Source: Nitrospirota bacterium (GTDB lineage Bacteria; Nitrospirota; Thermodesulfovibrionia; Thermodesulfovibrionales; Dissulfurispiraceae). Taken from it: 64,000 bases of DNA. Location: positions 64,001 to 128,000 of the forward strand of contig CAVPZX010000008.1 of assembly GCA_963710375.1 (NCBI GenBank), given 5' to 3'. A program made the position numbers and the translations under genes. Positions 41,326 through 49,162 of this stretch are shown here, one piece after another (position 1 is the stretch's first letter; every line of letters begins with the position of its first letter). The notes under the pieces were generated by a model. The model was not told the DNA's origin. It searched no databases and saw only the letters and a list, made by a program, of their open reading frames with translations.

Positions 41326-42681
41326 TTACCTGTTTGCGAGAGGCACATAGTCCTGTCGAAATCCGGGTACTGATGAAACGTAAGACGGCCTTATCAGTTT
41401 TCCCTGTATTATCTCTTCAATTCTGTGTGCCGACCATCCTGCCACTCTTGAAATTGCAAAAATGGGCGTGAATAATTCTTTAGGTATACCCATTGACCTG
41501 TATACGAATCCCGAATAAAAATCAACGTTTGCCGACGCCAATTTCCCTTTTTTCTTTAGGACCAGCACCGGCGACAGCCTGGCAACTTTCTTGTATAGCT
41601 CAAACTCTTTTCCCATGCCACTCTTTTCTGCGATCTCTTCCGCCTTACTCTCAAGTATCACTGCCCTCGGGTCCGACAGCGTATATACAGCGTGCCCTAT
41701 ACCATATATTTTCCCTGATTTGTCGTTCGCCTTCTTGTCAAGTATTTGTTCAAGGTAGCTTGAGACGGCTTCGTCATCGTTCCAGTCTTTCACGTGTGTC
41801 TTTATGTTTTCCATCATACCTTCAACAGCTTCATTTGCGCCGCCGTGCAGGTGTCCTGAAAGCGACGCGATTCCAGAGCATATAGCCATGTAACTGTTAG
41901 CGCCGGCAGAGGACACGGTCCTCACGGTGAAGGTCGAATTGTTACCGCCCCCGTGCTCTGCGTGGAGCACAAGCATCATGTCGAACAAGTTTGCGGTAAA
42001 CCTGTCAGGCTTTTTGCCATTCAGCATATAAAGAAAGTTTTCCGCATGGCTGTAATCTGCTTTCGGCTCTATCAGTCTGAAATGCCCTTTACTGCGTTCG
42101 TTTGATGCATGGTAGTTGTATGCAACAATTGTCGGAAACTTGGCTATCAAATCTATGCATTGTCTCGCAAGGTTCATTATGTCCGTAGAGTTCGGGTTGT
42201 CATCAAACAGGTGCATTGCTGATACGATGGTATGAAGAGATCCCATCTGGTCATCATGAGGCGGTCTGCTGCGGATAATCTTCTTGGCTTCCTTTGGAAG
42301 ATGCCTTCTCTCAGCGAGCGAACTCGTGAAGATATCAAGAAGCTTCCGGTCGGGGAGTTCGCCTGTAAGGAGGAGGTATGCAGTTTCTTCAAATCCGAAC
42401 CTGCCCTCTTCCTGCTGGTGTCTGACCAGGTCTTTTACGTTATAGCCACAGTAATATAATTCGCCATCGAGATCCACTTTCTTCTCAGTCCCGTCAGCCT
42501 CGAATTCTTTTTTGTAACTGATGACCTGGCCCTTGCTGGTTATTCCTACAAAGACCCCTGTGCCGTCTTCGTTGCGAAGTCCCAGTTTTATATTTTTTTC
42601 CCTGATAAGCTCCGGGGATACCTTATCGTGTTTCAATGCCAACTCTTGGATGATTCTCAGGACGCTCTGCACTCGTTTCAC
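41326..42681 (-). CDS. gltA: Citrate synthase
   Basis: LHAEHGGGNNST, LHGGAN, GIGHAVYTLSDPR, NVDFYSG. Confidence 0.93.
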   Translation of the reverse strand: MKRVQSVLRIIQELALKHDKVSPELIREKNIKLGLRNEDGTGVFVGITSKGQVISYKKEFEADGTEKKVDLDGELYYCGYNVKDLVRHQQEEGRFGFEETAYLLLTGELPDRKLLDIFTSSLAERRHLPKEAKKIIRSRPPHDDQMGSLHTIVSAMHLFDDNPNSTDIMNLARQCIDLIAKFPTIVAYNYHASNERSKGHFRLIEPKADYSHAENFLYMLNGKKPDRFTANLFDMMLVLHAEHGGGNNSTFTVRTVSSAGANSYMAICSGIASLSGHLHGGANEAVEGMMENIKTHVKDWNDDEAVSSYLEQILDKKANDKSGKIYGIGHAVYTLSDPRAVILESKAEEIAEKSGMGKEFELYKKVARLSPVLVLKKKGKLASANVDFYSGFVYRSMGIPKELFTPIFAISRVAGWSAHRIEEIIQGKLIRPSYVSSVPGFRQDYVPLANR

Positions 42682-42767
42682 CTCAATATAGTAACCTCCG
42701 AATAATTAACCGGAGGAACAAAATAATTTATATTTTACCATATTTATTTTATTTATTTTTAAGGAAG

Positions 42768-42943
42768 GCAGGAGAAGGGGAGCACTTGTTTTTCGACGCG
42801 CTGAAACTACGCTCCTCAGGGAATCCCTATGTCTTCATGGCAGCGATACACGAATCAGTTCTCAGGTCGGGCTCGGCGTTACTCGCCCTTGTTACAGTAG
42901 ACCCGTGCATCGCGTCGAAAAACAAGTGCTCCCCTTCTCCTGC
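42768..42943 (-). repeat. Structured element A (33-bp perfect arms, shared scaffold, 47-nt variable segment)
   Basis: 42768-42800 is the exact reverse complement of 42911-42943; core shared with element B in inverted orientation. Strand is relative to B only. Confidence 0.9.
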
Positions 42944-42972
42944 TGTTTATTTTATAGAATCAAATTATATTA

Positions 42973-43145
42973 GGAGCGGCAGCGGCAGGCTGTTTATCGG
43001 AGCGATGCACGGGTCTACTGTAACAAGGGCGAGTAACGCCGAGCCCCAGCTGAGAATGGGTATGGACAATTGCTACTATAACTTGATGTCACTTGCAATG
43101 AACGTAGTTTCAGCGCTCCGATAAACAGCCTGCCGCTGCCGCTCC
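42973..43145 (+). repeat. Structured element B (32-bp perfect arms, shared scaffold, 46-nt variable segment)
   Basis: 42973-43004 is the exact reverse complement of 43114-43145; 45-nt and 14-nt blocks identical to element A. Confidence 0.9.
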
Positions 43146-43201
43146 CTTCCTTATAGGGCTTATTGCCTCACAGAAAACACCTGGTGTATAATCAAGACAA
43201 T

Positions 43202-43975
43202 ATGCAAAAGGGCCAGGGCCGTAAAAAGCGTTATACACTATCAGTCGTCAACCATAAGGGCGGCGTCGGCAAGACGACCACGACCGTCAATGTGGCTGCG
43301 TGTCTAGCGGAACTGGGTAACAGTGTATTGGTCATTGACCTCGATCCACAAGGCAGCGCCAGCCTCGCTTTTGGTTTTAACGATGACGGCGAACGGCTTT
43401 TCCAATCCTTGCAAAAGACGATTGCCCTCCCGGTCCAGGCAACCAGGACAGGCGGGGTAGACCTTGTGCCGGCAGGACCCGGCCTCATCGGGGCATGGCA
43501 GCGTTTTTCCGGCGCCCTAGGGAAGGAGATCCTATTTAACTGTCTTCGCTATACGGAGGGCACATGGGACTGGATCATCGTCGATTGCCCGCCCAGCATG
43601 GGCGTTCTCACTCTTGCGGCACTAAATGCGAGCAATGGCGTGCTGATGCCGGTTGAGGCAACTCATCTTGCCGCTGCGGGTTTACACCAGATGACCGAAA
43701 CCATTGAGTCGATTGCCAGAGACCAGCGGGAGCGCAACCTCAAGCTTCTGGCGATTGTTCCCTGCCGTGCGCACCCCCGCAGACGGATCCATAACTCCGT
43801 AATGGCACATTTGGAGCAAGATTATCCTGGCATGATAGCGCCCATAGTACGCGAAAGTGCAGCCCTTGCAGAGTCGCCCGCTTTCGGCAAACCCATCATA
43901 GCCTTTGCACCTTCCTCTAACGGCGCTTCAGATTACCGCGCCGTCACAAAATGGATCGATAACCATATCCGATAA
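43202..43975 (+). CDS. ParA/Soj family ATPase (no parB nearby)
   Basis: HKGGVGKTT deviant Walker [26 protein letters not shown]. Confidence 0.88.
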
Positions 43976-47093: not shown

Positions 47094-47252
47094 ACAGTTT
47101 CATAAAAAGTCCATAGGCAAGGCACGCAAAGCCTGAGGAATGAGGCGTACCGTGATGTACGTCGCACGGGGTCCCCAAAAGCCGCAGTCTTTTGGGGTGC
47201 GAGTGACGAAGGATGCAGCGTAACGCAGCATATGGATTTTTTATGAAACTGT
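47094..47252. repeat. REP/MITE-like palindromic element (22-bp arms, one mismatch)
   Basis: ACAGTTTCATAAAAAGTCCATA ... TATGGATTTTTTATGAAACTGT; internal CGTAC/GTACG and CCCCAAAAG/CTTTTGGGG stems; overlaps the rnc stop. Confidence 0.8.
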
Positions 47253-47948
47253 TAGCTTTTTAAGCGCCTCTTTTGCTGCATCCATTTGAGATTCCTTTTT
47301 GCTCTTGCCGGTACCGCTTCCGAACAGTTTGCCTTGTATATATACTTCAGTCGTGAATATCTTCTTGTGCTCCTCACCCTCTTGCTTGACTATCCGGTAC
47401 TCGGGGAGCGTACCTACAGAGCTCTGGACCTTCTCCTGAAGCTCGCTCTTAAAGTCATAGTCCTCTTTTCCAAGGATTGTTTGTGAGATCCTGTCATCAA
47501 ACAGCTTTAGGACCACCTCTCTGGCTGTCACATAATCACTATCCAGGAAAACGGCCCCGACCAGTGCTTCGAATGCGTCGGAAAGAACAGACCTTTTCTG
47601 CCGGCCTCCGGTGAATTCCTCTCCCTTACCCAGGCTCAGGTAATTGCCCAGCGACAGCCTGGAAGCCATCTCGAACAGCACCAGCTCTTTCACAAGATAG
47701 GATTTTATTTTTGACATCCCGGCTTCAGTAAGATGCTCTTTGTTGAGGAACAGGGCCTCTGCTATGATCAGACCGAGCACTGAATCGCCCAGGAATTCGA
47801 GCCGTTCGTTGTGGGTCTTTACATCTCCTGCATTTTCATGGTGATATGATTTATGGGTAAGAGCGGTTGCGAGCAGCGACGTGTTTCTAAATGTGTAACC
47901 GAGTGAGGCTTCAATTCCCGCGATATTTTCCGAAGATAAGACAGGCAT
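47241..47948 (-). CDS. rnc: Ribonuclease III
   Basis: [27 protein letters not shown], dsRBD. Confidence 0.96.
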
Positions 47949-49162
47949 TTGTTCCCCCGAAACCGAAAGAATTTGAGAGCGCATACTTTACATCAACCTG
48001 CTTTGCGGTTTTGGGGACATAATCAAGATCGCACTCGGGGTCGGGGTTGTCCAGGTTAATCGTAGGAGGTACTTTGCCGTGATATATACTGAGAACAGAG
48101 AATATTGCCTCAACCCCGCCGGCAGCTCCCAATAGATGCCCCACCATCGACTTCGTAGAACTGACGCATAATTTATAAGCATGATCCCCAAATACGGTCT
48201 TGATAGCTGTAGTTTCGAGTTCATCTCCGTATTTCGTCGATGTGCCATGGGCGTTTATGTAATCGATCTTTTCCGGCTCAAGGCCGGCATCTTTTAATGC
48301 GGCTTTCATGCAACGTGCAGCACCTTCACCGCCGGGAGAAGGCGTTGTAATATGATAAGCGTCACTCGACATCCCGTACCCCATAACTTCAGCGTAGATT
48401 TTCGCATTCCTGGAAAGGGCGCTATCGAGGTTCTCGAGAAAGACAATTCCGGCGCCCTCACCCATGACAAAACCATCCCTGTCCATATCAAAAGGCCTGC
48501 TGGCCCTTTCAGGTTCGTCATTCCGGGTTGAAAGGGCTTTCATTACCGCAAAACCACCGACACCCAGAGTCTGTAATGCACGATTCAGTCCCGCCCGCAA
48601 TCATCGCATCCGCTTCACCACGCTGAATTATTCTGACGGCATCACCAATGGAATGGCTGCCGGTAGCGCAAGCGGTAACAGGGCATGAACTGGGTCCCTT
48701 TGCGCCGAACTTGATGGAAACGTTTCCCGAAGCCAGGTTAATGATGAGCATCGGGATAAAAAAAGGAGATATCCGCTTATACCCCTTTTCCAGAAAAGCC
48801 TTATGATAATGCTCGATGGCAGGAAGTCCTCCCATACCGGAGCCGATTACCACTCCCACCCTTTCGGCATTTTCCCCGGTAATCCTGAACCCCGAATCAT
48901 CGACAGCCATTTTCGCAGCAGCAATCGCAAAATGGATAAAGCGGTCCATCTTTTTGATTTCTTTTGCCTCGATGTAATTTGCCGGATCGAATCCCTTGAC
49001 CTCTCCGGCAATGCGCACCGGAAACGAAGACGCGTCAAATTCCGTTATGGGCCCTACTCCTGACTTTCCGTTCAGTGCTGCACTCCATGTCTCATCCACA
49101 CCGATACCGATAGGGGTGACCAGGCCCATGCCTGTGATAACAACTCTATTGTTCTCGATCAT
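47911..49162 (-). CDS. fabF: Beta-ketoacyl-ACP synthase II, split by one +1 frameshift near 48571
   Basis: [14 protein letters not shown] in ORF 1; [31 protein letters not shown] in ORF 2; junction ATT ACA G ACT CTG. Confidence 0.93.

Follow-up and report, generated by a model that had tools for sequence, protein, structure and literature searches.

The window, a stretch of 64,000 nucleotides from a Nitrospirota contig, carries a pair of inverted units, A and B, between divergent genes for citrate synthase and a ParA-family protein (Table 1). Together the units form one head-to-head doublet of a repeat that is dispersed in the genome; the coordinates and lengths assigned to it in an earlier note, written from the letters alone, were all confirmed by the sequence, a repeat finder and a script. 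According to the script, positions 43002-43046 equal the reverse complement of 42869-42913, an identity of 45 nt. The 4-nt gaps, the TGAGAA motif, the variable segments of 47 and 46 nt, the 14-nt tail, the 29-bp spacer and the CTTCCTTA ends were likewise all found, and each pair of arms is a perfect inverted repeat (33 bp in A, 32 bp in B). Both units fold far better than shuffled versions of themselves (z = -8.0 and -11.8; 0 of 200 shuffles equal either unit), and the repeat finder scored the outer ends of the doublet as 76% complementary across 21 nt.

Table 1. Parts of the A+B doublet and its immediate surroundings in the window
Feature	Position	Strand	Remarks
Citrate synthase gene, flanking	41326..42681	-	context
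T/A tract	42743..42759	.	17 nt; also missing from the G005 allele
A+B doublet, head-to-head	42760..43153	.	394 bp; outer ends TAAGGAAG/CTTCCTTA
Unit A	42768..42943	-	subfamily A (7 copies in source genome); folding (core) strand is minus
3' arm of A	42768..42800	-	perfect complement to 5' arm of A
Conserved 3' motif of A	42798..42811	-	CGTAGTTTCAGCGC
Variable segment of A	42812..42858	-	47 nt; within the 59-nt stretch from P3 to TAGTT
45-nt core of A	42869..42913	-	CACGG motif, linker, GC hairpin P3 at 42869-42888
5' arm of A	42911..42943	-	33 bp including GCG
AT-rich spacer between units	42944..42972	.	29 bp
Unit B	42973..43145	+	subfamily B (2 copies in source genome); folding strand is plus
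5' arm of B	42973..43004	+	32 bp
45-nt core of B	43002..43046	+	P3 hairpin at 43027-43046
Variable segment of B	43057..43102	+	46 nt
Conserved 3' motif of B	43103..43116	+	
3' arm of B	43114..43145	+	
ParA/MinD-family ATPase gene, flanking	43163..43975	+	context

The relationship between the two units is closer than it appears at the locus. Their arms do differ, as had been claimed, but they are not unrelated: they are diverged homologues with 17 of 30 positions identical (P = 0.0035 against shuffles). The variable segments are nearly equal in length and, compared directly, look unrelated in the window (22/48, P = 0.23). That description fails at the level of subfamilies, whose A and B consensus segments are related (28/48, unequalled in 2000 shuffles); the window segments match their own consensus at 34/48 and 37/47 positions. 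With respect to the spacer, the linker of BIMEs carries an IHF site, and the IHF consensus is matched exactly in 3 of 14 distinct related spacers and has no match in that of the window.

Distribution and constant plan of the repeat

The repeat is non-coding and about 175 bases long. Its 20-nt P3 hairpin occurs 35 times in the 3.19-Mb source genome (G000), in four subfamilies with different arms (A, 7 copies; B, 2; C, 16; D, 10), and a few additional copies have changed or interrupted loops. Copy numbers taken from the 20-mer are underestimates, because at one locus of a relative (L488 in G008) a doublet encloses, between its B and A halves, two more variants of the module whose arm sequences are new. 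The A+B doublet itself recurs at other loci as a unit of 386-394 bp. Among 68 genomes of the family, the 20-mer with at most one mismatch was found in 10, each of them from the window's genus, and in 0 of the other 58. A covariance model built from the genus led to a related family in other genera, and a widened model matched 29 of 151 genomes of the order, that is, 18 of 80 genera and 6 of 13 families. Six of 151 genomes in a phylum-wide sample were matched, all six in the window's family; the models were run under strict filters, and a genome without a match does not show absence. Four DNA sequencing runs, searched as contigs, yielded only further alleles. Among the sequencing runs containing the repeat, no RNA data set was listed, a result that carries no information on its expression.

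These results dispose of the possibility that the core is a local duplication, since it is dispersed in the genome and in relatives, and of its belonging to a known family in Rfam, where neither gathering nor E-value thresholds gave anything relevant for the repeat. The many copies foreseen in the earlier note, with a constant scaffold, a variable segment of fixed length and covarying arms, do exist; both the length constraint and the arm pairing hold beyond the window. BLAST of the element against plasmids and phages gave no match. Viral contigs contained 0 core matches and, with a gapped pattern, one chance match in coding DNA; they also contained 44 matches to an AT-rich end of the CAT type described below. 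In the genome collection, the exact core matches L075 and L092 were set aside, because they lie in coding-like DNA and have no arms. Our literature search found no description of the family, and large MITE catalogues, such as PMC11602168, may include unannotated copies.

Across the order, a constant plan is kept: a closing arm of 25-40 bp, the motif CACGG(G/T)T or YCTGGGT, a linker of 8-12 nt, the GC hairpin P3, the variable segment, TAGTT or TAATT, and the second arm. Between genera, and also within the genus, the P3 stems covary (GGGGC/GCCCC, GAGGCT/AGCCTC, CCCGGC/GCCGGG, GTGGCTGTC/GACAGCCAC), and the P3 loop is altered outside the window's genus. The 45-nt identity is therefore a genus-level trait. 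Stems were parsed sequence by sequence, because the cross-genus MAFFT alignment was too poor for column-wise covariation. The arm-to-core distances are 22/68 in A, 22/66 in B, 17/67 in C and 28/73 in D. The stretch between P3 and the 3' motif measures 56-60 nt in 99 of the 132 copies that were parsed; the parser skipped 39 of 171 sequences, mostly of subfamily D, and some of the length outliers are mis-picked hairpins. Among the 77 distinct metagenome matches listed, many of them from few samples, 76 measure 113-120 nt under a pattern that permitted 108-132. The junction motifs and the 56-60-nt length are kept in at least 10 genera and with 3-5 unrelated end types, while the sequence of the spacer diverges.

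The variable segment is specific to each subfamily and matches nothing else in the source genome. The earlier note had proposed an exchangeable, guide- or template-like insert, and this proposal is not supported: the segment is inherited with its subfamily, A and B segments are homologous, BLAST of the segments against the genome and the plasmid and phage collections found nothing outside the family, and no enzyme recurs at about 298 loci. Judged by its sequence, the variable segment is not a per-copy guide.

Ends, target duplications and turnover

The ends of the repeat fall into several types. In subfamily C, the outer 17 bp of the arms are the ends of IS1-like elements in other genomes, where they abut transposases (L233, L252) that score over the cut-off for Pfam DDE_Tnp_IS1 and below it for NCBIfam IS1. 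The outer 16 bp of the D arms are the end of an element (L217) whose DDE_Tnp_1 match lies just under the cut-off. Target duplications of 8-9 bp flank 15 of 16 C copies, compared with 12 of 240 mismatched pairs, and for D, duplications of 7-12 bp were seen by eye at about five empty sites. A third, CAT-type end bounds 16 near-identical 233-bp MITEs in G195 (L365-L379), 11 of which have perfect 9-bp duplications. No autonomous partner was found for the CAT-type ends. The same 233-bp module MITE is also present in G210, G030 and G032, with a recent burst in G195. The C, D and CAT types thus have the target duplications of MITEs, and C and D share their ends with insertion sequences (IS).

The arrangement in the window had been described as the reverse of ordinary MITEs, which conserve their ends, and this holds only in part. 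Members of one subfamily do conserve their ends, which in C, D and the CAT type are of IS type and accompanied by target duplications; between subfamilies it is the core that persists and the ends that are swapped. An A-type core, for example, also lies inside C-type arms (L039). The window doublet has terminal inverted repeats, but at six complete doublets nothing beyond a possible TA was found as a target duplication. The A/B doublet frequently adjoins C-type ends, and comparison with orthologous sites shows its junctions to be imprecise. No autonomous IS sharing the A/B ends was found by pattern in 251 genomes of the class or at the transposase loci of five genomes (repeats are often unassembled), and searches with RT, Y1/RAYT, IS630, DDE_Tnp_4 and DDE_Tnp_1 gave no partner for these ends.

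Positions turn over quickly. Colinear flanks in G000 were located for 54 of 103 copies of relatives, and the core is missing there in 50 of the 54 (doublets count twice). At the window locus, the doublet is missing in G005 and in a contig of run X8; in G003 part of an A arm persists among other repeats, and in G008 a remnant contains an IS1-like element. The presence of remnants in G003 and G008, which are more distant, means that the empty G005 site may result from a loss. The orthologous site in G008 (L106/L112) is occupied by an IS1-like element that includes passenger genes and has a duplication of 8 bp; the parA-like gene is missing next to it.

Copies nest with many other repeats at intergenic hot spots, and deleted and truncated copies occur. 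Outer A/B arms also surround tandem-heptamer hairpins in place of cores (G000 C5:136558-136801, C7:36321, C6:93526 and C9:64335; L264), and at A/B-arm hot spots the interiors appear exchangeable. Another repeat family has D-type ends and a different interior (G000 C3:199508-199716, C3:334876-335092, C5:314368-314543); in one of its subtypes the P3 strands are circularly permuted around a GAA loop.

The P3 loop is itself an insertion target. G008 contains 21 copies of an IS1182 element of about 1.81 kb with a 539-codon transposase frame (L488-L495, L624-L636), an assignment that scores above the NCBIfam cut-off. Fourteen of the 15 copies with both ends resolved are inserted at the AACG of the P3 loop, in a single orientation throughout and with a duplication of 4 bp. 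Targeting of hairpins by the IS1182 family and use of REPs as IS targets are described in PMC4923244 and PMC1525189, respectively. Such a sharply defined loop target makes the element testable as a site-specific integration tool. A hairpin mini-repeat of about 42 bp (GGGGTCCCC...AAAAGTC type) is also inserted in several repeat families, often at the P3 loop (G000 C3:169334-169545, C2:213011-213228 and C3:37823-38065; L068, L096, L102, L125).

Arm copying and strand bias

Changes in the arms were counted in 105 of 145 catalogued copies, leaving out 12 named chimeric or offset-arm loci, the X type, short arms and inner insertions. Distinct two-sided changes number 69, of which 34 are transversions, against 67 one-sided changes. 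Because independent mutation gives almost no two-sided changes, the arms are copied rather than independently mutated, as the earlier note had suggested in speaking of arms regenerated by copying. For transversions, a passage through a wobble intermediate is moreover impossible. Indels are also shared between arms, cores have been flipped between their own arms (L053, L054), and partial and complete arm perfection are seen at L319 and L325. Copies in other genera retain an internal arm loop that has been erased in the window's genus. In 3 of 16 C copies, the perfect inversion extends into the target duplication, which suggests that copying takes place in the chromosome after insertion.

The one-sided changes carry a strand bias. 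On the core strand, distinct one-sided transitions produce 31 G·T and 4 A·C mismatches (P = 3.5e-6, a significance inflated by inherited changes, as copies are not independent). The bias is equal in both arms and arises equally from A>G and C>T; other genera give 37 G·T against 9 A·C, and in the inner region the asymmetry is absent. The excess of G·T over A·C points to a fold that is specific to one strand. Whether that strand is RNA or single-stranded DNA (ssDNA) is a separate matter: the bias fits both alike, as G·T wobble separates neither. A·C mismatches are outnumbered by transversion mismatches as well (4 against 32); selection acting on a fold would not by itself lead one to expect this, and biased repair may contribute. 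A signature of A-to-I editing was rejected, with 15 A>G and 15 C>T changes.

The orientation of the element shows no tie to the direction of host genes (40 ++ against 37 -- by crude ORF calls), and set against local GC skew it gives no clear replication-strand bias (23 of 35, P = 0.09). A sigma-70 promoter regex gave few matches beside copies; a location of copies just upstream of promoters is an impression only.

Candidate partners and readings of the module

In agreement with the earlier note, which saw no cognate enzyme nearby, none was found near the doublet. We found no reverse transcriptase (RT) in G000; within the genus, 7 of 10 genomes have RTs and 8 of 10 have Y1 proteins. The core was not found at 50 loci of the genus (20 RT loci, searched within about 1.5 kb, and 30 Y1 loci), and the covariance model matched none of 48 RT, Y1, transposase and 6S loci. 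No mobile-element protein recurs among the top ORF clusters of about 298 loci. RAYT-like genes are present in 107 of 151 genomes of the order and are too common to inform, and none was found in G152, a genome with 16 model matches. A single RAYT-like Y1 transposase is encoded in the source genome (L021, region C2:219442-220386); it has 319 aa and a C-terminal HTH of the DnaA type, and its gene is flanked by 22-bp inverted repeats of its own. Unusual RT frames of 1227, 989 and, in a divergent case, 517 aa were noted in relatives (L158, L164 and L160, respectively); they are not linked to the module.

We consider it somewhat more probable than not, and hold as our working interpretation, that the pair is a doublet of a non-coding repeat whose core of about 105 nt acts as a folded single strand, likely ssDNA, that would be read by a putative mobilising or processing protein. 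In the predicted fold, a long stem closes the structure and is joined by a CACGG-type bulge, a short helix rich in G·T, the GC hairpin and the 56-60-nt spacer, which, with its length kept and its sequence not, would serve as a ruler rather than a guide. The core spreads as the interior of MITEs with at least three unrelated IS-type ends and their target duplications. Its arms would be homogenised on the chromosome, either through template switching between the inverted copies or through conversion. Lacking a target duplication, the A/B doublet may move or recombine by an imprecise, hairpin-directed route resembling that of REPINs. We favour ssDNA over RNA because no upstream sequence is conserved across end types and orientation is free, because an IS targets the loop in DNA, and because loops in other genera are rich in GAA and tandem GA motifs, which are associated with the stability of DNA hairpins. 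A bolder version, which we offer tentatively as unlikely, is a new class of non-autonomous element: an end-independent folded module with a ruler-length loop that a dedicated trans enzyme (a candidate priming factor, HUH protein or RT) would copy, rebuilding the arms, and that would colonise unrelated IS ends order-wide.

A structured non-coding RNA, one of the two options raised in the earlier note, is a possible but doubtful alternative. It would have a closing stem, a protein-binding junction and a variable loop, would be spread by MITEs, and might be a retron-like msr-msd template served by an RT in trans, with no programmable guide. The G·U-type strand bias is in keeping with it, as are the RT genes in most genomes of the genus and a TATAAT-like hexamer a few bases before several A copies. 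Retron RNAs have the order a1-msr-msd-a2, and the module parallels that layout, by analogy only, in that its inverted arms enclose a GC hairpin followed by an AT-rich segment whose length hardly varies. The module differs, however, from retrons in having no adjacent RT and dozens of dispersed copies; the base after the 5' arm is not a conserved branching G, the first unpaired base being C or T in most copies of other genera. The absence of an RT from the G000 searches and of the core from the surroundings of the 20 RT loci also weighs against an RNA, as do the lack of conserved upstream sequence in C, D and other-genus copies and the lack of an Rfam match, 6S included, at the gathering threshold. 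The 6S RNA of G000 is canonical, lies at a separate locus and does not score with the module's model.

That the fold is a single-strand origin or promoter (ssoA- or Frpo-like), priming the second strand via RNA polymerase or primase, with the doublet serving both strands, we regard as distinctly unlikely. In size, orientation dependence and long hairpin the module fits ssoA (about 160 nt in PMC5703833). Several copies have a 3' arm similar to RSB, and the hexaloop of P3, TAACG(C/T/A), is similar to CS-6 as given in PMC4598088. The features shared with ssoA-type origins (PMC5703833, PMC4598088, PMC8860593) are the length, the one-strand fold, an RSB-like stretch of the stem and, in some genera, a CS-6-like loop. 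The order of the motifs is reversed, however: RSB lies 5' of CS-6 on the same strand in PMC4598088, and the RSB-like arm here lies 3'. The RSB-like match is moreover short, low-complexity and without a chance estimate, and other loops replace the hexaloop in most genera outside g1, so that it is not order-wide. The module is chromosomal and multi-copy, with no Rep or plasmid link.

It is very unlikely that these are ordinary MITEs that share a neutral interior left over from one ancestral element, with arms perfected by generic quasi-palindrome correction and a fold that nothing reads. The classic MITE features of the C, D and CAT types, the nesting and the decayed copies would suit such a history, but the junction motifs and loop length are kept while the spacer sequence diverges, P3 covaries and the G·T bias depends on the strand. 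That the variable segment encodes a small peptide or a type I toxin-antitoxin system is disfavoured to the point of being scarcely credible: stop-free frames cross many A, C and D copies and a 112-codon ORF runs across the window doublet, but there is no codon periodicity (permutation P 0.49-0.91), one-base indels occur, and a frame is open on either strand in only 7% of 43 other-genus copies.

Prokaryotic MITEs such as Coxiella QMITE2 and the Correia elements, as presented in PMC10969869 and PMC3184786, are like the module in size, intergenic position and long stem-loop; the IS-derived ends with target duplications of C, D and the CAT type, and a hairpin that is a target for another IS, add to the likeness. 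They differ in that one core of fixed geometry is common here to several unrelated end types, that the A/B doublet has no target duplication or matching IS, and that the module's arms reach well inside the IS end and are strand-biased. REPINs, the RAYT-moved REP-BIMEs treated in PMC3116915, are likewise hairpin-forming inverted doublets that have a length-constrained spacer with compensatory changes, combine long persistence in a lineage with fast positional turnover, and are targeted by specific ISs (PMC1525189). The module shares the inverted hairpin doublet and the length-constrained spacer. In contrast to REPs of 20-40 nt, its units measure about 175 nt and contain an internal junction; no copy flanks a RAYT gene, whether in G000 or at the 30 Y1 loci, and one carrier genome has no RAYT-like match. 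In its behaviour the element resembles REPINs and MITEs (PMC3116915, PMC10969869, PMC3184786): it is non-autonomous, forms a hairpin, persists in its lineage with fast turnover and is parasitised by an IS.

The unusual feature is that several unrelated end types carry a single core, constant in its geometry, and that its arms show a strand bias. The interior of a MITE is generally regarded as decayed filler. This one has retained its junction and the length of its loop in at least six families of the order despite exchanged IS-type ends, which implies an unrecognised function of the interior and a putative reader. The family is also an unusually clean natural record of arm homogenisation with strand bias. 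Among minor observations, a resemblance to the 3' end of 16S rRNA was noted. Elsewhere in the window (47241-49162), a fabF-like gene upstream of the RNase III gene is present as two overlapping ORFs (47911-48600 and 48518-49162), which suggests a frameshift or an assembly error.
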